Source of the DNA: a virus
Virus record (IMG/VR): IMGVR_UViG_3300030202_003496
Coordinates: 1-64,000 of that record
Direction: 5' to 3' (one strand)
DNA: 64,000 nt
The position numbers and the translations under genes were made by a program. Below are positions 6,055 through 61,862 of this stretch, in pieces. The notes below the pieces were generated by a model. The model worked only from the letters and a program-made list of their open reading frames with translations. It ran no database searches and had not been told where the DNA came from. The first letter of the stretch is position 1. Each line of letters begins with the position of its first letter.

Positions 6055-6055
6055 T

Positions 6056-24931: not shown

Positions 24932-25016
24932 TTGCTGAAAAATTTTTATATCTCGGAAATTTTGCGTATATTTATATATAAATAAAAATTACTTAATAAC
25001 AAAAGCGCAATAACGA

Positions 25017-25361
25017 ATGAAACAATTGACACTAGCGATAGTATTATTTTTCGCAGGCCAGACACTAATATGGCTACAGACCAATGGACAATTTCTTTGG
25101 AAATGGTTTGACAGAAATCCACTAATTTTATCTATATCATTTGGGACGATAATTTCGTATATGTTTATATATGCGACAAAACATGTTGTAGGTCACTTTG
25201 ATGGATTGTTGTGGCCAGGAAGATTTATAGGATTTGGTACAGGTATGATATCATTTGTATTATTAACTTGGTTTTTTATGGGTGAAGGCATAACTACAAA
25301 AACTGCAATATCACTTGTATTAGCAACAACTTTGGTATGTATACAAATTTTTTGGAAATAA
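25017..25361 (+). CDS. Small multi-pass membrane protein
   Basis: About 4 hydrophobic segments; SMR/DMT-like size. Confidence 0.65.
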   Translation: MKQLTLAIVLFFAGQTLIWLQTNGQFLWKWFDRNPLILSISFGTIISYMFIYATKHVVGHFDGLLWPGRFIGFGTGMISFVLLTWFFMGEGITTKTAISLVLATTLVCIQIFWK

Positions 25362-25398
25362 TTTCTCTATGTCAAATAAATTTATTATATTATAGAAT

Positions 25399-29849: not shown

Positions 29850-29890
29850 TTTTATTTTATTATGTCCGAAAAATTTGTTATATTATATAT

Positions 29891-34473: not shown

Positions 34474-34528
34474 ATTTTTATATGTCAAAAAAATTTGTTA
34501 TATTAGTACTAAATAAAGAGGTTACAAA

Positions 34529-37181: not shown

Positions 37182-37600
37182 TAAGAATATTACATATTGA
37201 TGGTCCGGATAAGACAGGAAAAGATTCTATAAGAAGGCAAGTTGTTAAAAATGGAAAAGGTAATACATTGGTTTATATTAGGTCTTTTTTATCACAAATA
37301 GTATATTCAAGGTTATACAACAGAAAAATAAATGAAAAAGTATTTTTTATGTCATGGGCAGAGGCAATTGTTCGAGGTGAAGAATTTTATTTTATAGACT
37401 GTTCTTATGAATTGGTAAAAGAAAGATTTATAAAACACGATGAAAAAGATTTGGACATCAAAGATTGGAAAGAACATAGACGAGTTTTTTATGATGTACT
37501 TAAAGAAGCTGAAGAACAATATGATATAGAAGTGATTAGAGTAGATACTACAAAAGACACAATAAAACAATCAGCAAATAAAATACAAAGGGAATTATGA
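37172..37600 (+). CDS. Nucleoside monophosphate (thymidylate-kinase-like) kinase
   Basis: IDGPDKTGKDS P-loop; R...S..VY...Y.R. Confidence 0.75.
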   Translation: MALVRILHIDGPDKTGKDSIRRQVVKNGKGNTLVYIRSFLSQIVYSRLYNRKINEKVFFMSWAEAIVRGEEFYFIDCSYELVKERFIKHDEKDLDIKDWKEHRRVFYDVLKEAEEQYDIEVIRVDTTKDTIKQSANKIQREL

Positions 37601-38661
37601 GAAAATTATTTATCACAGGCGAAAGTGGTATGCTAGCCACTTCAATAATAAAGGCATTAGAACAATCAGGCCAAGATAGATTTGAGGTTATGGATAACTC
37701 AGACATTGCAGAATATACAAATGAATTTAGTTATCTTAATGGAAAACTTGTAAAGGCTAAGGAGGTAGATGTTACAGACAGAAAAGCTCTAAATAAAGTA
37801 CAAGACAAATTAACAAAAGATGATATTATTATACATACCGCTGCGTATGTAAATACAGATAAATGTGATGACTTTTCTTACGAGGCAGTTAACTCAAATA
37901 TTATTAGTACACAATACTTAATTGATGTAGCAAATGCAGTTGGATGTAAGATGATTTATTTTTCTACAACAGCTGTATTTGACCCTGATGAATATATGAA
38001 AGATAATGGTGTATTTGATGAAACTGCTTCAATAGACCCTAAAACACTTTATGGTCTTTCTAAATATTCTGGAGAACTAGCTACAAAGCAATCTATAGAT
38101 TTTGAAAAAATGATGGTAATCAAACCTGTATTTATTTACGGCGATGCGCCATTTGATAATTCTTCTATGATTAGAAAAATTACAGAAAAGGTATATTGTG
38201 ATATGAATAACATACCTTATACTCTTTCACCTCTCAATGAAGATGGAAAGCTTGATGTATTATTGAATCCTGGTATTGAAAAAGACTATATGAGATATGA
38301 ATATTTTGCAGATATGTTTTTAGAATTACTTCTTATGGATAATGGTTGGGGTTATGATTTTATTATAAGTAAAGATGCACCTATACCATTTGCAGAATAT
38401 CTATATCTTATAGAAGAAGTTACAGGATGCGATGACTTATCAAACCATATAAATTTAATACCTGAAGGTGATTATCTTGAAAGACACAATGGAATATCAA
38501 AGAATTTTTATAAATTATTCCAGCATTATCAATTACCTGTATCGGCGTATAATAATAAAGAAGGTATAGAAAAAACATATAAATCAATAGTTGAGCATTA
38601 TGAAGAAAATAGTAAAGAAAATAACGAGCCTGTTAGAAAAACAAGACTCTTCCACATATAG
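37597..38661 (+). CDS. NAD-dependent NDP-sugar epimerase/reductase (extended SDR, RmlD-like)
   Basis: ITGESGMLA, HTAA, FST..V, YGLSK. Confidence 0.85.
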   Translation: MRKLFITGESGMLATSIIKALEQSGQDRFEVMDNSDIAEYTNEFSYLNGKLVKAKEVDVTDRKALNKVQDKLTKDDIIIHTAAYVNTDKCDDFSYEAVNSNIISTQYLIDVANAVGCKMIYFSTTAVFDPDEYMKDNGVFDETASIDPKTLYGLSKYSGELATKQSIDFEKMMVIKPVFIYGDAPFDNSSMIRKITEKVYCDMNNIPYTLSPLNEDGKLDVLLNPGIEKDYMRYEYFADMFLELLLMDNGWGYDFIISKDAPIPFAEYLYLIEEVTGCDDLSNHINLIPEGDYLERHNGISKNFYKLFQHYQLPVSAYNNKEGIEKTYKSIVEHYEENSKENNEPVRKTRLFHI

Positions 38662-39106: not shown

Positions 39107-39167
39107 AAATCCTTTCATATGTCGGAAAAATTGCCTATATTATAGTATATAATAAAAAAGATAAAAT

Positions 39168-42521: not shown

Positions 42522-42578
42522 TTTCACTATGTCGGAAAGTTTTGTTATATTTATATTATATAAAAAAGGTTACGAAAT

Positions 42579-44097: not shown

Positions 44098-46009
<1,912 letters not shown>

Positions 46010-47879: not shown

Positions 47880-48086
47880 ATGGCAAAACAAAAATTAACA
47901 TCTGTAAAGGTTAACGAGGAGTCTTGGAATAATTTCAAGAAAATGTCGATAGATGAAAAAATTACATTTAGACAATTGGTTGATATATCAATTGAAGAGT
48001 TTATTAACAACAAGAGTTTTAGAAACACAATAAAAGAAAAGGTTATAGAAAATGGCAAAAAAGAAAATACTATTACTATCAGATGA
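47880..48086 (+). CDS. Small ribbon-helix-helix-like DNA-binding protein
   Basis: LTSVKV....W..FK pattern; first gene of the glycosyltransferase operon. Confidence 0.55.
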   Translation: MAKQKLTSVKVNEESWNNFKKMSIDEKITFRQLVDISIEEFINNKSFRNTIKEKVIENGKKENTITIR

Positions 48087-49455
48087 TTTAAGAATTCATT
48101 CTGGTGTTGGAACAATGTCAAAATCTTTTGTATTAGGTACGGTTAAACAATTTGACTGGGTACAAATGGCAGGTGCAATTAAACATCCTGAAAAAGGTAA
48201 GATTGCAGATTTATCTGAAGATACAAATAAAATATTAGGAATTGATGATGCTTATATAAAGCTTTATCCTGTTGACGGATATGGAAATCAGGCTATATTA
48301 AGAGAAGTTATGGCAATAGAAAAGCCTGATGGCATTATGCACTTTACTGACCCAAGATTCTGGGATTGGTTATACGCAATGGAGCATGAGATTAGAAAGA
48401 ATATTCCTATTATGTATTATAATATATGGGATGACCTTCCTTTCCCACATTGGAATGAAAATGCTTATGAATCTTGCGATGGTTTAATGGCTATTTCAAA
48501 ACAAACATATAACATCAATAAACATGTTTGCCAAAGAAAACCTAGAGTAGAAGGAAAGGACTTGTTTTATGTACAACATGGTATAAACGAAAATGTATTT
48601 TTCCCTATATTAGGAGAAGATGCTGAATTTCAAAAGTTTAAGAATGAAGTATTACAAGGGAAAACTTACGACTTTGTAGCGTTTTTCAATAGTAGGAATA
48701 TAAGACGTAAAGGTACCTCTGATTTGCTATCTGCGTTTGGAAAATTCAATAGAGAAATGACAGAAGAGCAGGCATCGAAAACAGCAATCATATTACATAC
48801 AGACCCAGTCGATACAAATGGTACTGATTTACCTGTATTGATAGAAAAGCTATACCCTAATATGAATGTTATATTTAGTACGCAGAAATTGGCACCTGTA
48901 CAAATGAATTGGCTGTATAATATTGCAGATGTAGTTTGTAACCCTTCTTCAGCTGAAGGTTTTGGATTGAGTCACATGGAAGCTATGATGGCTGCAAGAC
49001 CTACAATTACAACTGTTGTTGGAGGTTTACAAGACCAATTAGGTTTTAAGGTTGATGGTGAAGAATTATCTGTCAAACATTTTACAGCAGAAATTCCAAG
49101 TAATTCTACAGGAGAGATATCAAAAGAACATGGCGAATGGACATATCCATTGTGGCCAAATCAAAGTTTACAAGGCTCACCTCCTACTCCATATATCTAT
49201 GATTCTAGACCTGAAATAAATGATATTGCATCGGGATTAAAATATTGGTATGGACAATCTAAAATGGAGAGAACTAGAAAAGGAATCTTAGGAAGGAATT
49301 GGGCTATAGAAAATAAATTTACAGAAGATGGAATGAATGAGGCTATGCTCAATGCAATTCAAACTACGTTTGATAATTTCAAACCTAAAGCAAATTATGA
49401 ACTTATAGATTTAGACGCAACAAATAAAGTCTATCCAACAGGAGTATTAAGATAA
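48052..49455 (+). CDS. Glycosyltransferase (GT-B, GT4-like)
   Basis: RNIRRK, EGFGL...EAM. Confidence 0.88.
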   Translation: MAKKKILLLSDDLRIHSGVGTMSKSFVLGTVKQFDWVQMAGAIKHPEKGKIADLSEDTNKILGIDDAYIKLYPVDGYGNQAILREVMAIEKPDGIMHFTDPRFWDWLYAMEHEIRKNIPIMYYNIWDDLPFPHWNENAYESCDGLMAISKQTYNINKHVCQRKPRVEGKDLFYVQHGINENVFFPILGEDAEFQKFKNEVLQGKTYDFVAFFNSRNIRRKGTSDLLSAFGKFNREMTEEQASKTAIILHTDPVDTNGTDLPVLIEKLYPNMNVIFSTQKLAPVQMNWLYNIADVVCNPSSAEGFGLSHMEAMMAARPTITTVVGGLQDQLGFKVDGEELSVKHFTAEIPSNSTGEISKEHGEWTYPLWPNQSLQGSPPTPYIYDSRPEINDIASGLKYWYGQSKMERTRKGILGRNWAIENKFTEDGMNEAMLNAIQTTFDNFKPKANYELIDLDATNKVYPTGVLR

Positions 49456-50753
49456 TGAAACCAAGATTAGTTATAAGCTGCCCATCAACAAGCAGAAGTG
49501 GTTATGGAGACCATAGTAGAGATTTAATTAGAAGTTTAATTGATATGAATAAATTTGATATTCATGTTTTTGACCAAGTTTGGGGTACTTGTCCTAAAGA
49601 CGCATTAGGTAAAGATGATAAAGATATAAGTTCTTTAATTATAAAAAATCCTCAGCAATTTATGTCTGAAAAGCAGCCAGATATATGGATTCAGGTTACA
49701 GTACCAAATGAATTTCAACCTGTAGGTAAATATAATATAGGTATTACTGCAGGAATAGAAACAACTCTTTGCGATTCTACGTGGATTCAAGGCTGTAATA
49801 GAATGGATAAAGTCATAGTACCTTCAGAGCATGCAAAATATGTATTTCAAACTGCAAATTATAAAGCAATCAATCCTCAAACAGGACAGGAAGATACAAG
49901 CGCACCTGAATTAAAATTAGAGGTACCTGTTGAGGTTTTGTTTGAAGGTCTAGATATGGACTTTTTCAAAAAGACTAGTGAAATACCTGGTACAATAAAA
50001 TCATCTTTAGATTCGATAAAAGAAGATTTTTGCTTTTTATTTTGTGGCCATTGGCTGCATGGTATTATGGGACAGGATAGAAAAGATGTAGGTATGACAA
50101 TTAGAGTTTTCTTGGAAACGTTCAAAGGAAAGTCAAAAAGAAATATGCCAGCTTTAATACTTAAAACTTCTTCTGCAGGTTTTTCAATTGGAGAAAGAGA
50201 AGATATAATTAAGAAAATAAAACAAATAAGAAGTTACGTACAGCATCAAGGTGATTTACCTAGTATATATTTCTTGCATGGTGACTTAACAAAAGAAGAA
50301 CTTAATGGATTATATAACCATCCTAAAGTAAAAGCTATGGTGTCGTTTACAAAAGGTGAAGGATTTGGTAGACCGTTGTTAGAATATAGCGTTACAGGTA
50401 AGCCTACAATAGCTTCAAATTGGTCTGGTCATATAGACTTTTTATCTGCTTATGGTGTAATGCTTCCAGGTAAATTAAATAAGGTTCATGAATCAGTTGT
50501 TTGGGATAAAGTTATATTAAAAGATTCTGAGTGGTTTACTGTAGACTATGGATATGCATCTGGTATACTGAAAGATGTACATAAAAATTATAAAAAGTAT
50601 CATGAAAAATCTAGAAAGCAAACACAATATGTAAAAGATAATTTTACTCTGAAAGAGATGACAAAAAAGTTTGAAGAAATAATGGATAATTCTGTTCTAC
50701 CTTCATTCGATGTTAAACTTCCAGCTATAGAGGAGATGCAAACTTATGAATAG
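49455..50753 (+). CDS. Glycosyltransferase (GT-B, GT4-like)
   Basis: SGYG..SR, DRK, GEGFGRPLLE, SGH.DF. Confidence 0.88.
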   Translation: MKPRLVISCPSTSRSGYGDHSRDLIRSLIDMNKFDIHVFDQVWGTCPKDALGKDDKDISSLIIKNPQQFMSEKQPDIWIQVTVPNEFQPVGKYNIGITAGIETTLCDSTWIQGCNRMDKVIVPSEHAKYVFQTANYKAINPQTGQEDTSAPELKLEVPVEVLFEGLDMDFFKKTSEIPGTIKSSLDSIKEDFCFLFCGHWLHGIMGQDRKDVGMTIRVFLETFKGKSKRNMPALILKTSSAGFSIGEREDIIKKIKQIRSYVQHQGDLPSIYFLHGDLTKEELNGLYNHPKVKAMVSFTKGEGFGRPLLEYSVTGKPTIASNWSGHIDFLSAYGVMLPGKLNKVHESVVWDKVILKDSEWFTVDYGYASGILKDVHKNYKKYHEKSRKQTQYVKDNFTLKEMTKKFEEIMDNSVLPSFDVKLPAIEEMQTYE

Positions 50754-51204
50754 TGATATGAATTGGATTGAAAGTCCGCAGACAAAGAAATTGATGGTGA
50801 TGCAGGAATTTGATAATAAGAATGGAGTATCAAAAATAGATTTAAGTACAGGGTATTATACTAATGAATATCCACTTAATTATAAAAAGCATCCAAATTT
50901 TGATATAGAAAAATATGAAGAAGGAATGCCAGGTGTGGTAAAAGGTAATAGATATGATGATGGTGAATCTTATTGGTACCCTTCGACGATAAGAACTTCA
51001 AAAGAAATGGTGTTTCCTCACGGATTCGGTGAAGATATGATATGGTGCTATGCAAAAGTGAAACCTTTGACAGAAGAAGAAAAGAAAAAGTATTCTGCAG
51101 ATGTAAACTTTGAATCATTTTTAGACATGGCAAATGCAGAAAATTTTGATAGCTATTTAGAAGCGGCAAAAAAATGTAATGGGTTTAGTTTAGGCGATTT
51201 ATAA
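50746..51204 (+). CDS. Hypothetical protein
   Basis: Coupled ORF with SD. Confidence 0.6.
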   Translation: MNSDMNWIESPQTKKLMVMQEFDNKNGVSKIDLSTGYYTNEYPLNYKKHPNFDIEKYEEGMPGVVKGNRYDDGESYWYPSTIRTSKEMVFPHGFGEDMIWCYAKVKPLTEEEKKKYSADVNFESFLDMANAENFDSYLEAAKKCNGFSLGDL

Positions 51205-51671
51205 TGAATTTTTTTAATCAACATCTCACATTCAAGCAGTCTGCTGTAATCATACCAAAACATCAGTTACAGAAAGGTATGGTTGTACAGAATAGATATA
51301 AAAATCAGAAAGGAGAGACAAAAGATTATATGTTTCTTATATTGAATCCTGATTATTATCAAAAGGTTCATGTATTAAGCTTAAATGAATTTAGTAATAT
51401 GAGATTTAACGACCTTGCAAGAGATACAGGTATAAGGTTACTGCCTAGATTCAAAAAGAGAGGCTTAATTATACCTCGACTTACAATGATAGAATCTTCA
51501 CAAAGATTTTATTACGGAAGGCTTGCTGTAAATATGGAAAAATTATATAATAACAGTTACAGAACTCTTTTCCTAAGAAATATGAACCTTGTACAGCTTA
51601 TAGATTATAGGTTTGACCAAGACATAGAAGATACTTTAGATAGAAATCCAGGAAAAATAACAACTAATTAA
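51204..51671 (+). CDS. Hypothetical protein
   Basis: Coupled ORF (TAATG overlap). Confidence 0.6.
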   Translation: MNFFNQHLTFKQSAVIIPKHQLQKGMVVQNRYKNQKGETKDYMFLILNPDYYQKVHVLSLNEFSNMRFNDLARDTGIRLLPRFKKRGLIIPRLTMIESSQRFYYGRLAVNMEKLYNNSYRTLFLRNMNLVQLIDYRFDQDIEDTLDRNPGKITTN

Positions 51672-51681
51672 GGGAACGAAA

Positions 51682-54522
51682 ATGAAGGTAATTTTTATAG
51701 CTGATTTTTTTGTAAATCAAGTTTTTGGTGGGGGTGAGCTTGTTAATGAGGAGATAATAGACGGATTAAAAGCAAGAGGTATAAATGTAGAAAAAATAAA
51801 TTGCGAAAATTTTGATGCAAGCAAATCAGACAAAGATGCAGAATATTTAATAGGTAATTTTATATCTCTTACACCTTTCAGTAAAGATTATATAAAAAAC
51901 AATCTAAATTATTCAATTATAGAACATGACCATAAATATGTAACAGATAGAGATGTTTCAGGATATGAAAATTATATTGCACCTTCATATAAAATAATAA
52001 ATTCAGAATTTTATAAAAAAGCTAAAAGAGTTTATTGTCAATCATATTTACATAGTAACGTTGTATCAATGAATTTAGGATTGGATAATGTTGTAAACCT
52101 TTCAACAAGTATATGGTCTAAAGAACACTTGGACTTAATAGAATCTTATTGTGATACGCCAAAGAATAATAAAACTATGATTTTAGGTTCTAGCAATAAG
52201 ATAAAAAATACGCAAGGATGCATTGACTACTGTAATAACAATAACATCGACTATGACGTTGTAGGACCTCTTCCTTATAATGAGTTAATGAAAGAGATGT
52301 CAAAATATAAAAGCGTTTTGGTTTTACCAGGAGTACTTGAAACTTTTAATAGATTTTTGGTTGAGGCGAGAATGCTAGGCTGTACTATAAAAACAAATAA
52401 TAAGAATGGTTGTACTTCAGAAAGCTGGTTCCCTAAATTAAAAGGAAAAGAGCTTATAGATTTTATTAGAAAATCAAAAGAAGATTTTATAGAATCATTT
52501 ATATCAGAAGAACAAAAATTTCATAAGATAAACTATGGTAATGAAAATCATTTTAAGATTATTATACCTCTTTATAATGTAGAAAAGTGGATTGATAGAT
52601 GTTTAGGCTCTGTTATGTCACAGAATTATAAAAATTTCGAATGTATAATATTAGATGATATATCTACTGACAAGAGTGTAGAAGTAATTAGAAAAACTAT
52701 CAAACAAGATTCTAGATTTACGCTTATTGAAAATAAAGAAAAAGCTCTTGCTCTTAAAAATATATACGATGGTATAAAATATTCAAAGCCAGATGGAGAA
52801 GATATAATTGTAACGCTTGATGGTGATGATTGGTTTGAAAATGACAATGTGCTTACAAGATTAAATTCTATATATAACAATGATGATTGTTGGATAACAT
52901 ACGGAAGCTATATAGAATATCCTTCAAATACAAAAGGTAAATTTGCAAGGCAGGCACCTCAAAATATAATAAATGAAGGTTCATATAGAAAAAATGAATG
53001 GTATTTTTCTCATTTAAGAACATTCAAATATCATTTGTGGAACAGAATTAAAAAAGAAGATTTATTAGATTCTGAAGGTAATTTCTATCCTATGGCTTGG
53101 GACCTTTCATTTATGTTTCCAATGTTAGAGATGTCAGGTAACAAAAGTAGATATATCGACGATATCATGTATGTATATAATCTTACAAATCCTATAAACG
53201 ACCATAAAGTCAATCATGGTTTGCAGCAAAGGTTAGAAAATGAAATAAGAAACAAAAAACCTTATAAAAATCTAAATAAAAACAAATTAAATTTATTTAA
53301 TTGGAGTAGATTTGATTTGCCTATAAAAAGTATATTTCTTAATATGCTAGGTAAAAATACAGCATTTGGTAAAGATATATACAAAGAGCACTTGAGATTG
53401 TGGAATGGATTTAAGGAATACAACAATCCAAATAAAAATACATACGACGCATTTGAATTAGATTTTATTAAAATATATAATGACATGAAATCAAATAACT
53501 TTGATTGGAATAAGTCACCAGTTGTTGTCGATAATGAAGATTATCTTCTTAATGGCTCTCATAGAACTGCAGCTGCATCAAAGCTAGATATAGAAGTAAA
53601 AACAGTAGAAGGTAATAATATAAAAGACGGTCAAAAAGTATGTGATTATAATATGTTCCAAAAGCTAGGACTTAATCAGGATTATATGGATGCTGCAGCA
53701 CTTGAAATGGTAAGAAAAAACAAAGACTTGCTTGTTGTAAATATATTCCCTGCAGCAGTGGGCAATAGAAGAGAGTTAGAGAGCATATTAAATCAGACGT
53801 GTAATATTGCATACAAAAAACATATCAATTTTAACACAAAAGGGGCTCTGAATTATATGTTTCAATTATATAAAGGAGAACCCTGGGCTGGAAATAGAAA
53901 TAATAATTTTGCAGGTTTTAGAGAGAAGATGGGATATTGCTTTCCAAGCGATGGCGATATGACAATGTATTTAATAGAACTAAAAGACAAATCATTAGCA
54001 GTAAATATAAAAGAAAGAATAAGAAAAATATATGGAATAGGAAATCATTCAATTCATATTAACGATACCTACGAAGAAACATTAAGACTTTCTCGATGCT
54101 TATTAAATAAAAATAGTATTCACTTTCTAAATAATTCTCAGTTTAGAGACTATCCTAAATTTTATAATTCATTAAAATATTATGAAGACTACATTGATAA
54201 AAATGGATTAAACCACGAAGATTATTGTATTACAGCTAGTGGAGTTTTATCTTTATATGGATTGAGAGAAGCTGCTGATGTAGATTATATTCACGATTGT
54301 GCTCATGAGGTTATAGACCCTACAGACAACATACATTCTCATAATAAATACGGAGTAGGCATATATAAAAAATCTTATCATGATATTATACATAATCCAG
54401 AAAATCATTTTTATTACGGAAATATAAAGGTTGCATCACTAGATGTTATAAAACAACTAAAAGAATATAGAGGTGAAGAAAAAGACAAGATAGATGTTTC
54501 ACTTATGGAGAAAGTAATATGA
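51682..54522 (+). CDS. Multidomain glycosyltransferase (GT-B-like + GT2 + C-terminal domains)
   Basis: GGGEL..., ETF.R..VEA; IIPLYN, DD.STD, LDGDD; later LLNGSHR and GLRE..DVD. Confidence 0.75.
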   Translation: MKVIFIADFFVNQVFGGGELVNEEIIDGLKARGINVEKINCENFDASKSDKDAEYLIGNFISLTPFSKDYIKNNLNYSIIEHDHKYVTDRDVSGYENYIAPSYKIINSEFYKKAKRVYCQSYLHSNVVSMNLGLDNVVNLSTSIWSKEHLDLIESYCDTPKNNKTMILGSSNKIKNTQGCIDYCNNNNIDYDVVGPLPYNELMKEMSKYKSVLVLPGVLETFNRFLVEARMLGCTIKTNNKNGCTSESWFPKLKGKELIDFIRKSKEDFIESFISEEQKFHKINYGNENHFKIIIPLYNVEKWIDRCLGSVMSQNYKNFECIILDDISTDKSVEVIRKTIKQDSRFTLIENKEKALALKNIYDGIKYSKPDGEDIIVTLDGDDWFENDNVLTRLNSIYNNDDCWITYGSYIEYPSNTKGKFARQAPQNIINEGSYRKNEWYFSHLRTFKYHLWNRIKKEDLLDSEGNFYPMAWDLSFMFPMLEMSGNKSRYIDDIMYVYNLTNPINDHKVNHGLQQRLENEIRNKKPYKNLNKNKLNLFNWSRFDLPIKSIFLNMLGKNTAFGKDIYKEHLRLWNGFKEYNNPNKNTYDAFELDFIKIYNDMKSNNFDWNKSPVVVDNEDYLLNGSHRTAAASKLDIEVKTVEGNNIKDGQKVCDYNMFQKLGLNQDYMDAAALEMVRKNKDLLVVNIFPAAVGNRRELESILNQTCNIAYKKHINFNTKGALNYMFQLYKGEPWAGNRNNNFAGFREKMGYCFPSDGDMTMYLIELKDKSLAVNIKERIRKIYGIGNHSIHINDTYEETLRLSRCLLNKNSIHFLNNSQFRDYPKFYNSLKYYEDYIDKNGLNHEDYCITASGVLSLYGLREAADVDYIHDCAHEVIDPTDNIHSHNKYGVGIYKKSYHDIIHNPENHFYYGNIKVASLDVIKQLKEYRGEEKDKIDVSLMEKVI

Positions 54523-55337
54523 AAAAATTAAGTGTACCTTTTTATGTTTCTACAAACAATAAAAATATGAGATGTCTACAGGTTTTTGTAGAATTATTTA
54601 ATAAATTTACAAATAAAAGTGAGCTTATTATATTGGGATATGACAAGCCAGATTTTGAACTTACCGAGAACTGCAAATTTGAGTCTATGGGAACTCAAGG
54701 ACCTGTTGAAGAATGGTCAACTGATTTGAGAAAATATTTTATAAAATATGCTCCTAAATATTTTATATATGGTACAGAAGACACATTTTTTTATAAAGAA
54801 ATGAACCACGATTATATAAACTATTTGACAGAGGTTGTAAAACTAAATCATCAAATTGGCAAGGTTCAGCTATGTGATGTAGCAGAAGAAAATGGATTTG
54901 CAATAGAAGAAAATCGTCATTATAAATCTAGAATATTAACAAATGTTAACGTACCTGAATTAAATATTGACTTTGATATGCATGTATTGATGAAATCTAA
55001 TTATTCAATAAACTGTCAACTTTCGTTATGGAATAAAGAATTTTTATTAAAATATTTGGAAGATGGTTATTCACCTTGGGATTTTGAAATAAAAGGCTCA
55101 ATTGCAGCGTATGATGAGACAGAATGGTATTCAATAATACTTGATAGACAATTTGGTATATTTAAGAAAGAAGGTTTTAGTGGTGGTTTAGATATTAAAG
55201 AACAGTGGACTTATAAAGAATATTGGTTTGATAAATTAGAAAATGAATGGCTTAAGACACAAATAAGCGAATGGGGAAACCCTATACTGGCTGGGCCAAA
55301 TGGACAGTTCGGAACATCGAAAATTAGCGAAAGGTAA
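54519..55337 (+). CDS. Hypothetical protein, probably glycan-related
   Basis: ED.F, Q.SLW.K, SPW.FE motifs; operon context. Confidence 0.5.
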   Translation: MKKLSVPFYVSTNNKNMRCLQVFVELFNKFTNKSELIILGYDKPDFELTENCKFESMGTQGPVEEWSTDLRKYFIKYAPKYFIYGTEDTFFYKEMNHDYINYLTEVVKLNHQIGKVQLCDVAEENGFAIEENRHYKSRILTNVNVPELNIDFDMHVLMKSNYSINCQLSLWNKEFLLKYLEDGYSPWDFEIKGSIAAYDETEWYSIILDRQFGIFKKEGFSGGLDIKEQWTYKEYWFDKLENEWLKTQISEWGNPILAGPNGQFGTSKISER

Positions 55338-55338
55338 T

Positions 55339-56001
55339 ATGAAAAATATAGTTATATTAGCAGCAGGTCCACCAAAGCCAAATAGAAATAGACATTTAGA
55401 ATTATATAAAGGTCAAAAAATTATTGACATAGTAATTAAGAAATGTACAATTGAAAATACAAAATTATATGCTGTTGTTGATGAGAGAAATATCGAACTA
55501 ATAAACCATATAAAGGACAGAGTAAAATTACTTTACCCTAAAGATGGTAAAATATATAGTACATTTGAATCTGCTCTTTCTGTAGAAGGAGACACAATTA
55601 TGGTTGTCGGAGACCTTGTAGGATTAAAAGAAGGTGATATAAATAGATTTGTAGAATCGAAATACAAATCAGCAACTTGTATATATAAGCAGGCATGGGG
55701 TTTACATATAAAGTCTAAATATCCTAATCTAATAAGACGAGGTGATTGCGGTGATTGTATATCAATGATAGGTCAAGAACATAAAAAAGAATTTTTAGGT
55801 GAAAAAAATCAAATTGTGTATAAATGGCTATTTCATCAATTTTATCCAGAAAAAGAAATAAACCACGAAATTTATAATGATGTAGGAACATTTATGTCAT
55901 ACGCATTTTTTCAAAAAATATGGTCGAATCCATTATGTAGTGAATTCGGTGACAAAGGCTCTGTATATTTTGAACACAAAGTATATGCAGATAACGACTA
56001 A
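55339..56001 (+). CDS. Nucleotidyltransferase-like (NTP_transf fold) protein
   Basis: MKNIVILAAG N-terminus and V.GD motif. Confidence 0.5.
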   Translation: MKNIVILAAGPPKPNRNRHLELYKGQKIIDIVIKKCTIENTKLYAVVDERNIELINHIKDRVKLLYPKDGKIYSTFESALSVEGDTIMVVGDLVGLKEGDINRFVESKYKSATCIYKQAWGLHIKSKYPNLIRRGDCGDCISMIGQEHKKEFLGEKNQIVYKWLFHQFYPEKEINHEIYNDVGTFMSYAFFQKIWSNPLCSEFGDKGSVYFEHKVYADND

Positions 56002-56058
56002 AATATTTTTATATGTCGTAAAAATTTATTATATTAAATAAAAACAGAGGAATTAAAG

Positions 56059-56928
56059 ATGAAGACGATTAAAGAATTATTAAACGACAGTTCTAAAACT
56101 AACATAGTTATTGGAGCAAACAATGCTATGATAGCTGAAATAGCTTTACGAGCTGGTTATGATGGTGTTTGGGTATCTAGTTTCGAATCACATGCTTGGA
56201 ATCTATTACCAGATGCAAACATTCTAAATACTGCAGATTATTTTGACACAATCAGTAAAATTAGTGACAGAATAAGTATACCTATTTTAGTTGATGCAGA
56301 TGAAGGCGGGCCAAGTTCTATCAATACAATTAGAATGGTTAGAGAATATGAAAAGGCAGGAGCTTCTGCAATGTGTTTTGAAGACAATCCTTCTCCAAAG
56401 AGATGTTCTTTTTATGGAATGAAGCAGAGTTTAGAGACACCAGAGATTATGTGCGGTAAAATTAAAGCTGCAGTAGAAAAAAGATTGGATAAAGATTTTG
56501 CTATAATTACTAGAACAGAAGCGTTAATTCAAGGACATGGACATGATGTTGCAATGGAAAGAGCTAGAATGTATAATGATGCTGGCTGCGATGCTTTCTT
56601 GATTCATAGTAAAAGTAAGAATCCTGACGAAGTATTAAAATTTGCAGATATGTATCATAAGGCAGGGTTAAGAGCTCCACTTGTATGTGTACCTACAACT
56701 TATAATACAGTAAATATAAGTGAATTAAATAGTGCAGGATTTAGTCTTGTTATATATGCAAATTATTCTGTTAGAGCTGCTGTAAAATCTATAGAAGATG
56801 TATTTGCAAAAATGAAAGAAGGTGGTTCGCTATCTCATGCAAATGATGATATTGTTTCTATGGAAGATATATTCGATTTAATTAGAGTTGACCAATTAAA
56901 AGAAAATCAAGAAAAATATGGCTCTTAA
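56059..56928 (+). CDS. pepM: Phosphoenolpyruvate mutase
   Basis: G.WVSS, PDA, DAD.G, EDxxxPKxxS loop, R.EALI.G.G, LIHSK, VPTTY, IYAN; adjacent Ppd genes. Confidence 0.85.
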   Translation: MKTIKELLNDSSKTNIVIGANNAMIAEIALRAGYDGVWVSSFESHAWNLLPDANILNTADYFDTISKISDRISIPILVDADEGGPSSINTIRMVREYEKAGASAMCFEDNPSPKRCSFYGMKQSLETPEIMCGKIKAAVEKRLDKDFAIITRTEALIQGHGHDVAMERARMYNDAGCDAFLIHSKSKNPDEVLKFADMYHKAGLRAPLVCVPTTYNTVNISELNSAGFSLVIYANYSVRAAVKSIEDVFAKMKEGGSLSHANDDIVSMEDIFDLIRVDQLKENQEKYGS

Positions 56929-57349
56929 TAAATTATTTGATAAGTTATACGAAGAAGGTTATAGGTTTTTTACAGGTGTACCTGATAGCTTACTTAAGCC
57001 TTTTCAGGATAGTATTGATGGTGATAGCAAGGCGTCTTTTAATCCTAAAGCTTTACCTGATTGGAAACATATTATTGCAACAAACGAAGGTCAAGCAATA
57101 GGCATGGCTGTAGGTGCTGAACTGGCTGGAACTAAATCTTGTGTATATTTACAAAATTCAGGTTTAGGAAACTGCATAAACCCTTTAACAAGTTTATGCA
57201 TACCTTATAATATAAAACCTTTATTAGTAATAGGCCATAGACACACACTACCTCAGCATAAAGTTATGGGTGAGACAGATGAGGCTATGCTAAAGTTAAT
57301 TGGTTATGAAAATTATATGATAATCAAAGGAGATAACAATGTCGGATAA
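56918..57349 (+). CDS. Phosphonopyruvate decarboxylase, N-terminal (alpha) subunit
   Basis: FFTGVPDSLLK, NEG.A.G.A.G, YLQNSGLGN..NPL.SL, PQH..MG. Confidence 0.88.
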   Translation: MALNKLFDKLYEEGYRFFTGVPDSLLKPFQDSIDGDSKASFNPKALPDWKHIIATNEGQAIGMAVGAELAGTKSCVYLQNSGLGNCINPLTSLCIPYNIKPLLVIGHRHTLPQHKVMGETDEAMLKLIGYENYMIIKGDNNVG

Positions 57350-57836
57350 GACAGTAAGCAGAGAAAGAGCAATACAAATAATATTTCAAAAACATGGAAA
57401 GTATGCTATTTATGTGACAAATACAGGTTATATATCTCGAGCTGTATATAAACTGTTTCCTGATATGGAAAATATATTTTATATGCAAGGAAGTATGGGA
57501 CTGGCACCAGCGATAGGCTTAGGAATTGCCGAGCATACTGACAGACCTGTCGTAGTATTAAGCGGTGATGGCGCTCTGTTAATGCATTTAGGAATCACAC
57601 ATACAATTAGAGACACATACAGTAAAAATTTATATGTATATGTTTTAGATAATGGTTCACATGAATCAGTGGGGGATTATCCTGTATCTCAACTACAGCG
57701 TGATGTTGCAGGGCAGTGTTCATATCCAGGTATAGATAAAATATTAAAAATAAAAAAAGATGGAAAGCTTCCTAGAGTAGGAATTGATTGTGTACAGAAT
57801 GCAATAAATATTAAAGAAGAAATAAAAAATGGGTAA
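57339..57836 (+). CDS. Phosphonopyruvate decarboxylase, ThDP-binding (beta) subunit
   Basis: TG.ISR, FYM.GSMG, GDGA.LM.LG, DNG.HESVG. Confidence 0.88.
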   Translation: MSDKTVSRERAIQIIFQKHGKYAIYVTNTGYISRAVYKLFPDMENIFYMQGSMGLAPAIGLGIAEHTDRPVVVLSGDGALLMHLGITHTIRDTYSKNLYVYVLDNGSHESVGDYPVSQLQRDVAGQCSYPGIDKILKIKKDGKLPRVGIDCVQNAINIKEEIKNG

Positions 57837-58800
57837 ACTATTATTAAATCCAGGGCCTACAAATACTAGGTTTAGAACAAAACTTGCTCAATGGCTTGGT
57901 TCTGATATCTGTCATCGAACAGATGAATTTGATAATATTCTTTCTGAAACAAAAAATATTTTACTTAAAGGATTCGAAAACCACCACGCTGCAATAATTG
58001 GAGGTAGCGGTACTACTGCTATGGAAGCAATGATATCCTCTCTTGTCGAAAACATAACTGTTATAAATGCTGGTATTTATGGCCAGCGCGCAGTTGATAT
58101 GATGGAAGTTTATGGAATAAAATATAAAGAAATAAAATGTACTTCCATTGATGAGTTAAAACAAAATAAAAAAATAAAAAATTTATATTTTGTTGAAAAC
58201 GAAACAACAACTGGTGAAAAATTCGACGTAAATAAAATTTCAGAATTATATCCAAATGCTAATTTGTTTATTGATACAACATCTGCATTTGGTGCTTCTG
58301 ACTATTCTAATATTAAAATAGCCGCAATGTGTTTTTGCAGTAATAAATGTTTACAGTCTACTCCAGGTCTTGGTATTGTTATTTTTAATAAAGATTTGAA
58401 AATTAAAAAAAGGTCTTATTATCTAAATCTTGAAAAATATATAGGTAAAGACATACCTTTTACATTACCAGTTCAATCTGTATGTGCCTTAAATAAAACA
58501 CTAAAAATATCTAAAAATAATAAAGATGATTTTGATATTAGAAAAGATAGACTTATTAAAAAGTTTTCAGAAATAGGAATACAATGTATCAATAAAAATC
58601 CTAGTAATTCAATTATAGGTTTTGTGCATCCTAAAATGAGTTATGAAAAGTTGAGAGATTTTTTATTAAACGAAAACATTGTTATTTATGCTGGAATAAA
58701 AGGTATTAAAAATAGTTTTAGAATATCTACTATGAGTACAAAATTTGATAAAAACTTTAATAGAATTATAGGATTGTTTCATGAAACGTGTTTATTCTGA
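57829..58800 (+). CDS. 2-aminoethylphosphonate transaminase (PLP class V, PhnW/AepZ-like)
   Basis: LLNPGP, GSGT.AME, G.YG.R, ETTTG, D..S.FG, SNKCLQ..PG. Confidence 0.85.
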   Translation: MGKLLLNPGPTNTRFRTKLAQWLGSDICHRTDEFDNILSETKNILLKGFENHHAAIIGGSGTTAMEAMISSLVENITVINAGIYGQRAVDMMEVYGIKYKEIKCTSIDELKQNKKIKNLYFVENETTTGEKFDVNKISELYPNANLFIDTTSAFGASDYSNIKIAAMCFCSNKCLQSTPGLGIVIFNKDLKIKKRSYYLNLEKYIGKDIPFTLPVQSVCALNKTLKISKNNKDDFDIRKDRLIKKFSEIGIQCINKNPSNSIIGFVHPKMSYEKLRDFLLNENIVIYAGIKGIKNSFRISTMSTKFDKNFNRIIGLFHETCLF

Positions 58801-59173
58801 TATTGTGGGGGACCTGTTTCATATTGGACATATAAATATGTTTAAGCAGGCTAGAGAATATGGTGACTATTTAATTGTAGGTGTGCACTCTGATAAAACA
58901 GTAGAATCATATAAAAGAAAGCCTGTAATATCAGAGAATGATAGATACGAAATTGTAAAAAACTGTAAATTAGTCGATGAGGTAATTATAGATGCACCTT
59001 TGGTAATTACACAAGATTATATAAAAGAAAACAGAATAGATATTATAATACATGGCGACGATAATCTTTTTTTAGAAAATTATAAGATACCAATAGAGAT
59101 GGGGATTATGAAATATACAAAGTATACAAAAGGAATATCAACATCAGAAATTATTGAGAGGATAAAGAAATGA
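58781..59173 (+). CDS. Cytidylyltransferase (HxGH family)
   Basis: DLFHIGH, YKR.P, HGDD, ISTS.II.RI. Confidence 0.9.
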   Translation: MKRVYSDIVGDLFHIGHINMFKQAREYGDYLIVGVHSDKTVESYKRKPVISENDRYEIVKNCKLVDEVIIDAPLVITQDYIKENRIDIIIHGDDNLFLENYKIPIEMGIMKYTKYTKGISTSEIIERIKK

Positions 59174-59574
59174 AAATATATTCAAAGGTTGACGGTAGGT
59201 TATTACATATTATAAACAGAATTCATGACTTTCAAGGTAGAAAAGAAATGATACCCGAGGATAATTTTTTACAATGTGCTACATTAAGAATGGAAAAAGG
59301 AAAGACGTTCCCTCCACACAAACATATTATAAAAGATAGACATTATCCAGAACAGATTGCTCAAGAGTCATGGGTGGTAATCAAAGGAAGCGTAAAATGT
59401 ATATTCTATGACATTGATGATAAAATAATTGCTGAACCTATATTAAAACCAGGTGATGCTAGTTTTACTTTATACGGTGGTCATACATATGAAATATTAG
59501 AAGATGATACTTTGGTATATGAATATAAAACAGGGCCTTATGAAGGACAGAAATTAGACAAGGAGTTTATATAA
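59170..59574 (+). CDS. Cupin-fold protein (WbuC/sugar isomerase-like)
   Basis: PHKH, QE...V..G, GGH, E.K.GPY. Confidence 0.7.
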   Translation: MKIYSKVDGRLLHIINRIHDFQGRKEMIPEDNFLQCATLRMEKGKTFPPHKHIIKDRHYPEQIAQESWVVIKGSVKCIFYDIDDKIIAEPILKPGDASFTLYGGHTYEILEDDTLVYEYKTGPYEGQKLDKEFI

Positions 59575-60266
59575 TGACTGATAAAGAAATAAATAAAGAA
59601 TTATTTTTAGACTTTTTTGTAAATAAAAAAGATTTAACAATTATGGATGTAGGGACATACGATGGTAAGGATAGTATGGAATTTAGCAAATTATTTCCTC
59701 AATCAGAAATATACTCTTTCGAGGCAGACAAAAGGTCTGTAGATGTTTTTAATAAAATTGCAGGAGATGTAAAAAATATAAATTTAATTGAAACTGCTCT
59801 ATCAAATGTTGATGGCGAAATAGATTGGTATGCTAGCGATAGTGATACGCGAAGACATTATGATTTTGAAAACGGATGGTCGGCATCAAGCTCGATTAAA
59901 AAACCTGATAATCATTTGAATATATTTAAGGACGTTTCGTTTAACAAAAATTCAAAAGTAAAATCTATGAAACTAGATACTTGGATGAGTGAAAATAAAA
60001 ATATAAAAAATATAGATATAATGTGGGTAGATGTTAACGGAGGTGAAAAAGAGTTTATAGAAGGTGCAATATATACATTAAAAAATAAGGTAAATTATTT
60101 ATATATAGAATTTAATGGCGTTGACAATAGAAAGCTATATAAAGATTGCCCAACAGCAGATGATATAAAAGAAACACTAAGTACATTTTCAGAAATTGGA
60201 ATATACAATTTTATGGGAAATTTTGGAAACATATTATTAAAAAATGGAGCATTAAATGAGCTTTAA
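59574..60266 (+). CDS. FkbM-family SAM methyltransferase
   Basis: DVG...G, FEAD, ALS, SSS, LD, DV.G.E. Confidence 0.85.
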   Translation: MTDKEINKELFLDFFVNKKDLTIMDVGTYDGKDSMEFSKLFPQSEIYSFEADKRSVDVFNKIAGDVKNINLIETALSNVDGEIDWYASDSDTRRHYDFENGWSASSSIKKPDNHLNIFKDVSFNKNSKVKSMKLDTWMSENKNIKNIDIMWVDVNGGEKEFIEGAIYTLKNKVNYLYIEFNGVDNRKLYKDCPTADDIKETLSTFSEIGIYNFMGNFGNILLKNGALNEL

Positions 60267-60888
60267 TAAAATAGCAGAGTTCGAAAATAAGATAGCAGAG
60301 TTTTTTGGTGCACCTCATGCAGTTGCTGTCGATTGTTGTACTCACGGAATAGAGCTATGTTTAAGATATCAAAATCTTTCATATATCAATGTTCCTAGAC
60401 AGACATATATTTCAGTTCCTTTTTTATCAAAAAAATTAAATATAGAATTACAATGGACAGATGAAAAATGGAAAGACTATTATTGTGTTAACGAACATTT
60501 TATACCAATATATGATGCAGCAGTACTATGGAAAAAAGATAGTTATATTCCAAAAACTTTTATGTGTATTAGCTTTCAATTTAGAAAACACCTAAGTTTA
60601 GGAAGAGGTGGTGTTATATTATGTGATAATAAGAAAGACGCATTAGAATTAAAGAAAATGACATATGATGGAAGACATCCAGATATCCCTTGGAGAGACC
60701 AAAATATAAGCACAATGGGGTATCATTATTATATGACACCAGAAACAGCAGAATTAGGTTTGTCAAAACTACAAAAAGCAATAGAAACAAAACCTGTGCA
60801 GTGGAAAATTGATGACTGGCCAGATGTTTCAAAGATGGAAATATTTAACAAAAAAGAAGAGGTAGACCCTTACTTACAAACGAGGTAA
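60256..60888 (+). CDS. DegT/DnrJ-family sugar aminotransferase (short)
   Basis: FE..IA, AVAV..CT, DAA, SFQ..K.L..G.GG. Confidence 0.8.
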   Translation: MSFNKIAEFENKIAEFFGAPHAVAVDCCTHGIELCLRYQNLSYINVPRQTYISVPFLSKKLNIELQWTDEKWKDYYCVNEHFIPIYDAAVLWKKDSYIPKTFMCISFQFRKHLSLGRGGVILCDNKKDALELKKMTYDGRHPDIPWRDQNISTMGYHYYMTPETAELGLSKLQKAIETKPVQWKIDDWPDVSKMEIFNKKEEVDPYLQTR

Positions 60889-60890
60889 TT

Positions 60891-61862
60891 ATGAAAAAAG
60901 CATTTATAACAGGAATATCAGGTCAGGATGGAAGTTATCTTGCAGAATATTTAGTAGAGCTAGGATATGAAGTTCACGGTATTGTTAGAAGAAATTCTAC
61001 ACCAGAAAACCAACATAATAGAATAGACCATTTAGATGATAAGATACACACGTACTATGGAGATTTATTAGACCAGGGAAGTGTAGAAAGACTTTTAGAC
61101 AAAATTCAGCCAGATGAAATATATAATATTGCAGCACAATCACATGTAAGAATTAGTTTTGACATTCCTCAGTTTACAGTTCAGACAAATGCTTTAGGTG
61201 TCTTGAATATGTTAGAGGCGTATAGAAGAGCATGTCCAGATGCAAAGTTCTATCAAGCTAGTTCATCTGAAATGTTTGGTCTTTCTGTAGAAGAAGATAA
61301 TTTTCAAAGAGAAACTACAATTATGAATCCTGTTTCTCCTTATGGCTGTTCAAAGGTATTTGGATATAATATAGTTAGAAATTATAGACGTGCTTATGGA
61401 TTGCATGCAACAAATGGAATATTATTTAATCATGAGTCACCAAGACGAGGTAGTAATTTTGTAACAAACAAAGTTGTAAAAGCTGCTGTAAGAATAAAGC
61501 TAGGACTACAGGATAAGTTAGAACTTGGTAATATGGATTCTTATAGAGATTGGGGACATTCATACGATTATGTTAGAGCAATGCATTTAATGATGCAGCA
61601 TGATGAGCCAGGTGATTGGGTTGTTTCTACTATGGAAACACATTCAGTAAGAGAGATGTGTGAATTGGTATTTAATTATTTGGATTTAGATTATAAAGAT
61701 TATGTAGTACAAAATCCTAAATTTTTAAGACCTGAGGAATTACCGTACTTAAAAGGTGATTCTACAAAAATAAGAACAGAATTAGGATGGAAACCAAAAT
61801 ATACATTCAAAGAAATGATGGAAGAGATGACAGAGCATTGGTTGGAGTTATATAAAAAATGA
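60891..61862 (+). CDS. gmd: GDP-mannose 4,6-dehydratase
   Basis: ITGISGQDGSYLAE, AAQSHV, QASSSEMFG, SPYG.SK, FNHESPRRG, RDWG. Confidence 0.95.
   Translation: MKKAFITGISGQDGSYLAEYLVELGYEVHGIVRRNSTPENQHNRIDHLDDKIHTYYGDLLDQGSVERLLDKIQPDEIYNIAAQSHVRISFDIPQFTVQTNALGVLNMLEAYRRACPDAKFYQASSSEMFGLSVEEDNFQRETTIMNPVSPYGCSKVFGYNIVRNYRRAYGLHATNGILFNHESPRRGSNFVTNKVVKAAVRIKLGLQDKLELGNMDSYRDWGHSYDYVRAMHLMMQHDEPGDWVVSTMETHSVREMCELVFNYLDLDYKDYVVQNPKFLRPEELPYLKGDSTKIRTELGWKPKYTFKEMMEEMTEHWLELYKK

Follow-up and report, generated by a model that had tools for sequence, protein, structure and literature searches.

The question raised by this locus is whether a bacteriophage can carry its own route to a compound with a carbon-phosphorus (C-P) bond, and whether the enzyme at the head of that route is a phosphoenolpyruvate (PEP) mutase. 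A large part of the dissolved organic phosphorus in the sea consists of phosphonates. The window analyzed here, 64,000 nucleotides long, is the first 64 kb of the 74,780-bp IMG/VR record IMGVR_UViG_3300030202_003496, which CheckV estimated to be 46% complete. It contains a cassette of five genes which, as judged from sequence comparison, most likely serves a marine T4-like phage to make 2-aminoethylphosphonate (AEP) and to activate it with cytidine monophosphate (CMP).

The five open reading frames (ORFs) of the cassette are all located on the plus strand, span positions 56059-59173 and overlap one another by 11, 11, 8 and 20 nt, in this order (Table 1). Four more genes follow in the same tight packing, so that the cassette opens a nine-gene run that ends at 61862. 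An earlier reading of the bare sequence (the original prediction) had named them as a PepM-like enzyme, the alpha and beta halves of a phosphonopyruvate decarboxylase (Ppd), a class V aminotransferase and an HxGH cytidylyltransferase. The ORF list proved exact, and the matches in Pfam, NCBIfam and the Protein Data Bank (PDB) agreed with these identities; in NCBIfam a phosphonate model was top-ranked for each of the cassette proteins, all scores being under the equivalog cut-offs. The GC content over the cassette (0.327 and 0.280 in two 2-kb bins) was inside the whole-window range of 0.280-0.391, in line with the claim that the cassette shares the AT content of the genome. As a whole, the earlier interpretation stood with respect to gene identities, phage origin, promoter motif and composition; the departure from the canonical PepM motif described below had not been anticipated.

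The product of the first gene matched the PEP mutase family PF13714 with 132.4 bits (cut-off 31.5) over profile positions 3-239 of 240. The PEP mutase model TIGR02320 was the best of six superfamily models (247.3 bits), the scores for the hydrolase and prpB models being 195.9 and 152.9 bits, respectively. Searching the PDB revealed the PEP mutase 5unc as the best match (E 1.9e-58), then a phosphonopyruvate hydrolase and then the mussel PEP mutase. In HMMER and MAFFT alignments the gating loop was F-E-D-N-P-S-P-K-R-C-S-F-Y, compared with L-E-D-K-L-F-P-K-T-N-S-L-H in the mussel enzyme and M-E-D-K-T-F-P-K-D-T-S-L-R in the hydrolase. The protein did not qualify as a methylisocitrate or isocitrate lyase: KRCS is followed by FY, the KRCGH stretch is absent, and the prpB score is far from the cut-off of 354.4 bits. 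Comparison with the mussel chain 1m1b revealed eight aligned and identical residues, D58, D85, D87, E114, K120, S123, R159 and H190; the list of metal- and phosphoryl-binding residues used here was in part taken from the review PMC7916636. The LIHSKS stretch around H190, which is missing from the lyase, was present as well. Each of 16 tracked positions was kept in 117-120 of the 120 best database relatives (62-100% identity, largely from marine metagenome sources), including the variant residues N110 and C116 (window numbering), and Cys116 as well as the EDN..PKRCS loop occurred in all 120. More than 100 clusters of this enzyme at 90% identity were found in marine metagenomes. The designation "PepM-like" was borne out by the best family model, the active-site residues and the tree described below, but not by the loop, which reads EDNPSPKRCS where EDKX5NS is expected.

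A PepM tree was calculated by a quick IQ-TREE search with 148 rows and rooted on methylisocitrate lyase, after 11 of 159 rows covering less than 85% of the domain, including a Vibrio phage protein, had been left out. The window protein belonged to a marine clade with full support, itself part of a 40-row clade of mostly EDN-type loops, with 23 Cys loops and 11 rows that combine a non-Lys residue at position 116 with Asn-Ser. The sister of this clade was a 98-row clade containing 90 EDK..NS rows and the single EDK..TS row, and the methylisocitrate lyase outgroup was far off, with an end branch of 1.52. Because the deep splits had support values of only 87-94 (Shimodaira-Hasegawa-like approximate likelihood-ratio test, SH-aLRT; unstarred) from a quick search, the sister relationship of the EDN and EDK..NS clades is probable but not firm. 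Cys and Asn loops interleave in the tree, the Cys label needing seven changes, at least two of them forced by starred branches. This interleaving within one clade speaks for Cys and Asn being alternatives in one and the same enzyme. Grouping with the lyases or with the hydrolase, to which the original prediction had pointed as the adverse outcome, was not observed; the phylogeny and the model searches suggested with it placed the protein inside the PepM radiation on the mutase side, apart from the lyase and from the one hydrolase-type (EDK..TS) row, and matched the PEP mutase, Ppd, transaminase and CTP_transf_like families.

Some relatives with the Cys-type loop are fused to a PF12804 nucleotidyltransferase domain (P0124, P0125, P0127, P0132) or to a thiamine diphosphate (ThDP) domain (P0131). 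According to the available text of PMC6697681, such fusion partners occur almost only on motif-positive Ppm and are typical of true Ppm. When cellular genomes were scanned for EDNx[FSY]PKRC, each prokaryote species being represented by one genome, 432 stretches were obtained; 420 of them belonged to relatives, and the best 80 loci were examined. Most of these have a Ppd-like neighbour (57 of 80, and 52 of the 67 whose downstream sequence is 3 kb or longer). The carriers among the 420 include Sorangium cellulosum So ce56 and Minicystis rosea as well as many Polyangiaceae, Planctomycetota, Acidobacteriota and Actinomycetota; genome mining based on EDKX5NS would reject all these loci. The complete set of five, arranged and spaced as in the window, was present in 15 of the 80 loci, all from Actinomycetota. 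None of the species-representative genomes contained a protein more than 55% identical to the PepM-like protein, so that within the collections searched the marine clade looks phage-specific.

The remaining cassette proteins fit the subsequent steps. The alpha half of the decarboxylase matched the Ppd model TIGR03297, which has 360 positions, with 106.6 bits at positions 2-122 (sulfopyruvate decarboxylase alpha, 62.2 bits; TPP_enzyme_N, 21.2 bits, under the 26.8 cut-off), and the beta half matched the same model with 107.2 bits at positions 170-299 (sulfopyruvate decarboxylase beta, 93.0 bits; TPP_enzyme_C, 35.3 bits). Ppd was thus the best match over both halves of the ThDP enzyme, and the adjoining Ppd genes overlap the pepM-like gene. 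The best model for the aminotransferase was TIGR03301 (PhnW-AepZ, 163.8 bits), with Aminotran_5 at 24.4 bits (cut-off 21.5); its best PDB match was 6pd1 (E 5.1e-21), deposited as "Nucleotidyl transferase/aminotransferase, class V", then the 2-aminoethylphosphonate-pyruvate aminotransferase 1m32, and the SNK lysine stretch was aligned. The last protein matched PF01467 (CTP_transf_like) with 89.3 bits (cut-off 21). Its best PDB match was the ethanolamine-phosphate cytidylyltransferase 3elb (E 1.8e-39); choline-phosphate cytidylyltransferases came next, and a further match (E 9.2e-12) was 5x3d, a chain deposited under the name phosphoenolpyruvate phosphomutase. HIGH at residues 14-17 and KGISTS near the C-terminus were both aligned to 3elb and 3hl4; HxGH and (R)TxGISTS are motifs of the ethanolamine-/choline-phosphate cytidylyltransferase branch. 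Phosphoethanolamine is the phosphate ester analogue of AEP, and an enzyme of this type is thus a natural fit for the formation of CMP-AEP. From its position in the operon and the gene order in the 15 Actinomycetota loci, it is predicted to convert AEP and cytidine triphosphate (CTP) to CMP-AEP.

The cassette resides on a phage genome. The same contig encodes a T4-type major head protein, a tail sheath protein, a class I-like ribonucleotide reductase (RNR), DNA polymerase, GroEL, gp32-like and RecA-like proteins, a DnaB-like helicase, a 5'-3' exonuclease, UvdE and ThyX. All listed ORFs of at least 200 amino acids (aa) are on the plus strand, and a tRNA search of the contig found none. The nearest cultured capsid relatives were Flavobacterium phage vB_FspM_immuto (46.6%) and Microcystis phage Mel-JY01; an assignment to a Flavobacterium host was dropped, since a capsid identity of 46.6% is too weak to name a host.

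As the original prediction had suggested, the same synteny was sought among viral sequences, and it recurred. Eleven distinct IMG/VR contigs hold the same PepM type with 64-99% identity; both Ppd genes and the transaminase gene follow in nine of the 11 and the cytidylyltransferase gene in eight, the misses being loci that end earlier. An independent 115.6-kb contig carries a 98%-identical gene set, with about 55 kb between capsid gene and cassette, as in the window. A capsid gene was found in two of five related contigs searched, the other three being fragments without a capsid match; one capsid was 87% identical, with the cassette about 55 kb downstream as in the window, and the other belonged to a different T4-like lineage (38-48%). 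Three further putatively viral contigs encode other PepM types, one of them with a canonical EDK..NS loop, next to Ppd-like and cytidylyltransferase-like neighbours. A 192-kb IMG/VR contig (L104, about 6001-6831), which may be cellular, provided a negative contrast: its methylisocitrate-lyase-type gene has the loop EDQ..KRCGH and no Ppd neighbour. Apart from the two possible source runs, four runs labelled marine metagenome, from two studies, each contained at least 0.68 of the sampled words of the window; no RNA run was among the listed runs with window sequence.

The sequence comparisons indicate that the cassette is under purifying selection. In comparison with the 98%-identical contig L002, the ratios of nonsynonymous to synonymous substitution rates (dN/dS) were 0.048, 0.052, 0.056 and 0.040 for the first four cassette genes; L002 ends before the cytidylyltransferase gene, and the fifth gene is thus not covered. 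Between more distant pairs, most synonymous sites were saturated, and the proportion of nonsynonymous differences (pN) was 0.08-0.31. In a second tree, likewise from a quick search, a marine viral clade (seven rows, support 99) and an Actinomycetota clade (18 rows, 99) were united in a starred clade (97). Neither of the two nests in the other, and the tree favours neither direction of transfer.

The cassette is preceded by a promoter-like motif of the phage's own, as had been proposed. The bipartite motif ATATGTCNNAAAAATTNNNTATAT had seven matches with at most three mismatches, all on the plus strand, whereas 0.35 were expected, and none of 100 shuffles reached seven. Two 15-nt motif searches did not exceed chance when taken singly, in contrast to the combined bipartite pattern. 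A sigma-70 scan gave no signal (96 sites versus 98.1 expected). The copy in front of the pepM-like gene, ATATGTCGTAAAAATTTATTATAT, is perfect. The motif precedes the ORFs beginning at 25017, 25399 (UvdE), 29891 (5'-3' exonuclease), 34529, 39168 (DNA polymerase), 42579 (ThyX) and 56059 (PepM), those at 25017 and 34529 being without named function. Three of the upstream regions, those of the ORF at 34529, of the DNA polymerase gene and of the pepM-like gene, align, with the motif 49-52 nt before each ATG. Since this motif is shared, the operon is probably expressed together with the replication and repair genes and not with the structural genes; it would then be wired into an apparently replication-phase regulon of the phage.

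The cassette forms the centre of an approximately 14-kb glycan-type island (48052-61862). Two GT4-type glycosyltransferase genes stand at its start, separated by two small ORFs without a named family from the gene for a 946-aa multidomain protein, which is kept beside the cassette on related viral loci. The C-terminal module of this protein, about 407 aa long (window 53299-54519), contains invariant NGxHR, HIND and GxRx3DxD stretches. It is found elsewhere, mostly in viral records, either by itself (about 415 aa) or joined to a GT2, GT25 or methyltransferase domain. Read by eye, a GS...DxD stretch in it may be pol-beta-like, but this reading was not used as evidence. The 272-aa protein encoded next showed tblastn identities of 92-93% on two related viral contigs (L002, L007), 50% on two others (L003, L004) and 25% on a fifth (L005). 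Neither the 407-aa module nor the 272-aa protein had a sequence match in Pfam, PHROG or the PDB, nor the latter in NCBIfam, and Atlas searches with both returned only unnamed, mostly viral clusters. Both are candidates, and no more than that, for the transferase that would use CMP-AEP.

Three side observations concern the surroundings. A GroEL-type chaperonin gene (44384-46009; PHROG 5725, 518.6 bits) lies just upstream of the island. The DegT-like aminotransferase in the downstream run (60256-60888) has only 210 aa, and its match to the Pfam model (360 positions) falls into two separate stretches, which gives the impression of an internal shortening; nevertheless, two related viral contigs encode it with 64% identity. 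A second nucleotide-sugar enzyme of the RmlD/epimerase family (37597-38661, 354 aa) is encoded in the replication module, far from the island.

The count of five pathway genes given in the original prediction holds for the cassette itself; a sixth pathway-type gene just upstream had escaped it. Directly in front of the cassette, a gene encodes a protein of 220-233 aa, and several lines of sequence comparison point to a divergent MobA-like nucleotidyltransferase. The window protein had no Pfam match of its own, but PF12804 was matched by nine of 35 aligned homologues (best E 1.2e-5), and in the ESM Atlas the best matches were viral PF12804 clusters (score 0.95, 158 shared features), below the safe level of the tool. 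In hhalign, the family aligned with 60 fused PepM C-terminal domains over 100 columns (Prob 79.6, E 1.5e-5); against a single fused protein the Prob was 0.38. Some JGI records name the homologues MobA or CobU-type guanylyltransferases. The dN/dS against L002 was 0.151. On the related viral contig L100 (1806-4535), a 909-aa protein with a GT2 domain carries the MobA-like domain at its C-terminal end, and nucleotidyltransferase and glycosyltransferase are physically linked there. The available text of PMC6697681 gives PF12804 as the family of the characterised AEP cytidylyltransferases. The enzyme acting on AEP could thus be either the PF01467 cytidylyltransferase or the MobA-like nucleotidyltransferase.

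Table 1. Features of the window around the phosphonate cassette, with positions on the 64,000-nt window
Feature	Position	Strand	Length	Evidence or remark
Promoter-like motif, all copies	24948-24971, 25367-25390, 29860-29883, 34480-34503, 39117-39140, 42527-42550, 56011-56034	+		
Two GT4-type glycosyltransferases, island start	48052-49455, 49455-50753	+		PF00534 46.2 and 21.6 bits (second under cut-off); PHROG 2170
Multidomain protein	51682-54522	+	946 aa	GT2 at residues 293-435 (PF00535 83.1 bits); C-terminal module of about 407 aa
Protein conserved beside the cassette on related viral contigs	54519-55337	+	272 aa	tblastn
Divergent MobA-like (PF12804-type) nucleotidyltransferase (predicted)	55339-56001	+		ORF callable from 55300; conserved start Met at 55339
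Promoter-like motif, perfect copy	56011-56034	+		AGAGGA Shine-Dalgarno-like site follows at 56046-56051
PepM-like enzyme, EDN...PKRCS subfamily	56059-56928	+	289 aa	PF13714, TIGR02320, 5unc, loop, tree
Phosphonopyruvate decarboxylase, N-terminal (alpha) half	56918-57349	+	143 aa	TIGR03297
Phosphonopyruvate decarboxylase, ThDP-binding (beta) half	57339-57836	+	165 aa	TIGR03297, TPP_enzyme_C
Class V aminotransferase, AEP transaminase type	57829-58800	+	323 aa	TIGR03301, 6pd1, 1m32
HxGH cytidylyltransferase, ethanolamine-/choline-phosphate type	58781-59173	+	130 aa	PF01467, 3elb
Downstream run: WbuC-like cupin, FkbM methyltransferase, short DegT-like aminotransferase, GDP-mannose 4,6-dehydratase	59170-61862	+		TIGR04366 39.2 bits (cut-off 42), TIGR01444 69.4, PF01041 54.2, PF16363 396, in this order

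Taken together, it is probable that the five genes constitute a working, phage-owned AEP/CMP-AEP pathway in the infected cell and that CMP-AEP decorates a glycan that the neighbouring phage genes build. The sequences themselves show the gene families, their synteny and conservation, the location on a phage and the shared motif; every catalytic step, the nucleotide, the timing and the glycan target are predicted from these. The Cys-loop PepM-like enzyme would rearrange PEP to phosphonopyruvate, a reaction whose equilibrium is unfavourable, as established for PepM. The two-subunit ThDP decarboxylase would convert the product to phosphonoacetaldehyde and thereby make the step irreversible, the pyridoxal phosphate-dependent transaminase would yield AEP, and the ethanolamine-phosphate-type cytidylyltransferase would form CMP-AEP. 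The surrounding genes (GT4, GT2, GDP-mannose dehydratase, DegT-like, FkbM) may supply a glycan of the GDP-6-deoxy-amino-sugar type together with its transferases, and a transferase would add the CMP-AEP-derived group to this glycan on the host envelope or the virion. DNA is the least likely target, because no hypermodification genes were present among the window ORFs scanned.

Several observations weigh against this reading. The PepM-like protein is below the TIGR02320 equivalog cut-off of 319.55 bits, and its loop Cys aligns with the Cys of the lyase KRCGH loop, the catalytic Cys of the lyases. The transaminase is below the TIGR03301 cut-off (360.8), and each Ppd half is far below the whole-protein TIGR03297 cut-off (312.5), as is expected because the gene is split. 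At 15 of the 67 cellular loci with enough flank there was no Ppd-like match, which may be due to a divergent query or to true absence of Ppd. No assayed enzyme of the Cys subfamily was found, and the literature searched, with most subscription journals outside its coverage, contained no paper related to the variant Cys-loop motif. The loop departs from EDKX5NS at two positions, K116N and N122C (mussel numbering); the protein is accordingly not filed as PepM, and this name is derived from its context. EDKX5NS is the discriminating PepM test in the available portions of PMC8931226, PMC6697681, PMC8942020, PMC12723261 (a 2025 actinomycete screen) and a Pantoea preprint. Moreover, a change from Asn to Thr at the position of the Cys, Asn122, is credited by most authors with the difference between mutase and hydrolase, a cause that the accessible part of the review PMC7916636 doubts. 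If the Cys-loop enzyme were for these reasons not a PEP mutase, the cassette could run, for example, from sulfopyruvate to sulfoacetaldehyde and its amination, and the product would not be AEP; the decarboxylase is indeed split like sulfopyruvate decarboxylase, and its beta half scored 93.0 bits for that enzyme versus 107.2 bits for Ppd. We consider this unlikely. In the tree the protein falls within the PepM radiation, at a great distance from the lyase outgroup and apart from the EDK..TS row, H190 and LIHSKS are kept, Asn and Cys versions interleave within one clade, and the fusion partners are those of true Ppm. A hydrolase ahead of Ppd would destroy the substrate of the decarboxylase, and both decarboxylase halves as well as the transaminase were best on phosphonate models.

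A different doubt concerns the fate of the product. AEP or CMP-AEP could be made but end up as the head group of a phosphonolipid, on protein, on phage DNA or as a free metabolite, the neighbouring sugar genes being incidental. The cytidylyltransferase is closest to the enzyme making CDP-ethanolamine, and its substrate could be phosphoethanolamine instead of AEP; the promoter-like motif is common to DNA replication and repair genes; and the single Actinomycetota locus examined for this (L009) had no obvious glycan cluster or acceptor clue. No CMP-AEP transferase, LicD-type or other, was recognised among the island proteins by Pfam, PHROG and PDB sequence searches, and a glycan fate is for this reason deduced from the neighbourhood. 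Such a non-glycan fate nevertheless has a low probability in our view, because the cassette is translationally packed with the cupin, FkbM, DegT-like and GDP-mannose dehydratase genes, three genes with glycosyltransferase domains precede it in an arrangement that recurs on related viral contigs, and no CDP-alcohol phosphatidyltransferase or DNA-hypermodification gene was found among the window ORFs scanned. In the giant-virus genome described in the available text of PMC8942020, too, the AEP core is directly followed by aminosugar genes. That the island is host DNA misassembled onto a phage contig, or that the contig is not viral at all, could be suspected because the record is a metagenome-derived fragment of 46% estimated completeness, yet it is highly improbable. 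Phage genes stand on both sides (a nuclease and a DprA-like gene upstream of the island, an endolysin-like gene beyond the window end), strand and GC content are like those of the rest of the contig, and the perfect motif copy precedes the operon. The island junctions recur on contigs from other samples, about 55 kb of the window run colinear with the contig G001, and the absence of any protein more than 55% identical from the species-representative genomes points in the same direction. The T4-like genes, the single strand, the shared motif and the recurrence on an independent contig all speak for the view, already held in the original prediction, that this is phage DNA and not host contamination.

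What appears to be new is, on the one hand, a recurrent bacteriophage cassette predicted to make AEP and CMP-AEP and, on the other hand, a loop with Cys for Asn122 that is common to a large phage clade and to 420 cellular loci and that current censuses would discard. In the available text of PMC8931226 and PMC12723261, phosphonate producers are counted by PepM with a perfect EDKX5NS motif. The cassette described here is under purifying selection and its first enzyme does not pass this filter, yet it shows all the remaining hallmarks of a phosphonate pathway. Should the enzyme be active, such censuses undercount producers not only among phages but also among the cellular carriers of the variant loop, such as Sorangium and many Actinomycetota, and phages make C-P compounds during infection, probably altering a surface glycan. 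We put forward more tentatively, and as somewhat less than an even chance, that the Cys-loop enzymes are real PEP mutases missed by every EDKX5NS census and that, at the same time, the marine clade (62-100% identical) is confined to phages. If this is true, infection by phages supplies marine phosphonate from a source that has not been counted, and this pool is linked with the oceanic phosphorus cycle and with methane production under aerobic conditions. The replacement of Asn122 by Cys may, in addition, reflect a mechanistically distinct handling of the migrating phosphoryl group.

The original prediction had stated that no phosphonate pathway of a phage was characterized, and no paper on one was found in the literature searched, with the same restriction on journal coverage. 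A 2026 survey of virus-encoded phosphorus genes (PMC13188868) lists phosphonate degradation, and pepM as a community gene only. A tblastn search with the PepM-like protein against 50,697 phage records matched just five of them. One precedent is the cultured Vibrio phage Va2 (MW073017, 128 kb), whose GenBank entry names a "phosphoenolpyruvate mutase" as well as a "thiamine pyrophosphate-binding protein", and for the second of these the Ppd model was the best match (152.4 bits); no paper discussing these genes was found in the same literature. Its mutase differs from that of the window, with 31% identity over 65% of the query, a TIGR02320 score of 89.3 bits, a loop of EDK plus six residues plus NS, and an extra C-terminal domain in a 434-aa gene. 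Its PEP-mutase-like and Ppd-like genes (1101-2201 and 5902-7206) flank RNR genes, and neither a transaminase nor a cytidylyltransferase is annotated near them. T4-like cyanophages such as P-SSM2, with their glycan/LPS gene islands, resemble the window in carrying nucleotide-sugar genes, and the GDP-mannose dehydratase region of the window has 69.5% nucleotide identity to P-SSM2. With the PepM-like protein, tblastn gave no match in these records.

The closest cellular counterparts are metagenome-assembled genomes (MAGs) of Actinomycetota (L008-L019 and L022-L024; Acidimicrobiales, Solirubrobacterales, Thermoleophilia, Frankiales), in which the five genes are arranged and spaced as in the phage, with identities to the window of 45-55% for PepM, 48-60% for the Ppd halves and 44-52% for the cytidylyltransferase. 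They differ from the phage cassette in belonging to cellular high-GC genomes, in a transaminase that is just 22-29% identical, and in the absence of the upstream phage genes for the 946-aa glycosyltransferase, the 272-aa protein and the MobA-like protein.

The route to AEP with subsequent nucleotidyl activation is known in bacteria as the Pnt pathway, here compared on the basis of the accessible text of PMC6697681 and of 6pd1. The window resembles it in the four chemical steps, the gene families and the glycosyltransferases nearby. According to the same text, a nucleotidyltransferase is encoded within a few genes of ppm in about two-thirds of Pnt clusters, and the window is alike in this respect. 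In contrast to bacterial Pnt, the set described here is carried by a phage, has EDNPSPKRCS in place of EDKX5NS and a decarboxylase split into two genes, and encodes no recognised LicD-like transferase; its cytidylyltransferase is of the PF01467 ethanolamine-phosphate type and not the PF12804 PntC, with the divergent PF12804-like gene located upstream.

The other viral precedent is the giant-virus MAG of PMC8942020, compared here by its description in the available text. The scan of RefSeq viruses and 364 huge phage genomes reported there, which used the EDKX5NS filter, found no other viral Ppm. In contrast to the window, that genome belongs to a giant virus of eukaryotes, and its Ppm, which forms a fusion with Ppd, came through the EDKX5NS filter. 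As in the phage island, an AEP core on a viral genome is followed by amino-sugar genes, and the authors read this arrangement as a viral phosphonoglycan.

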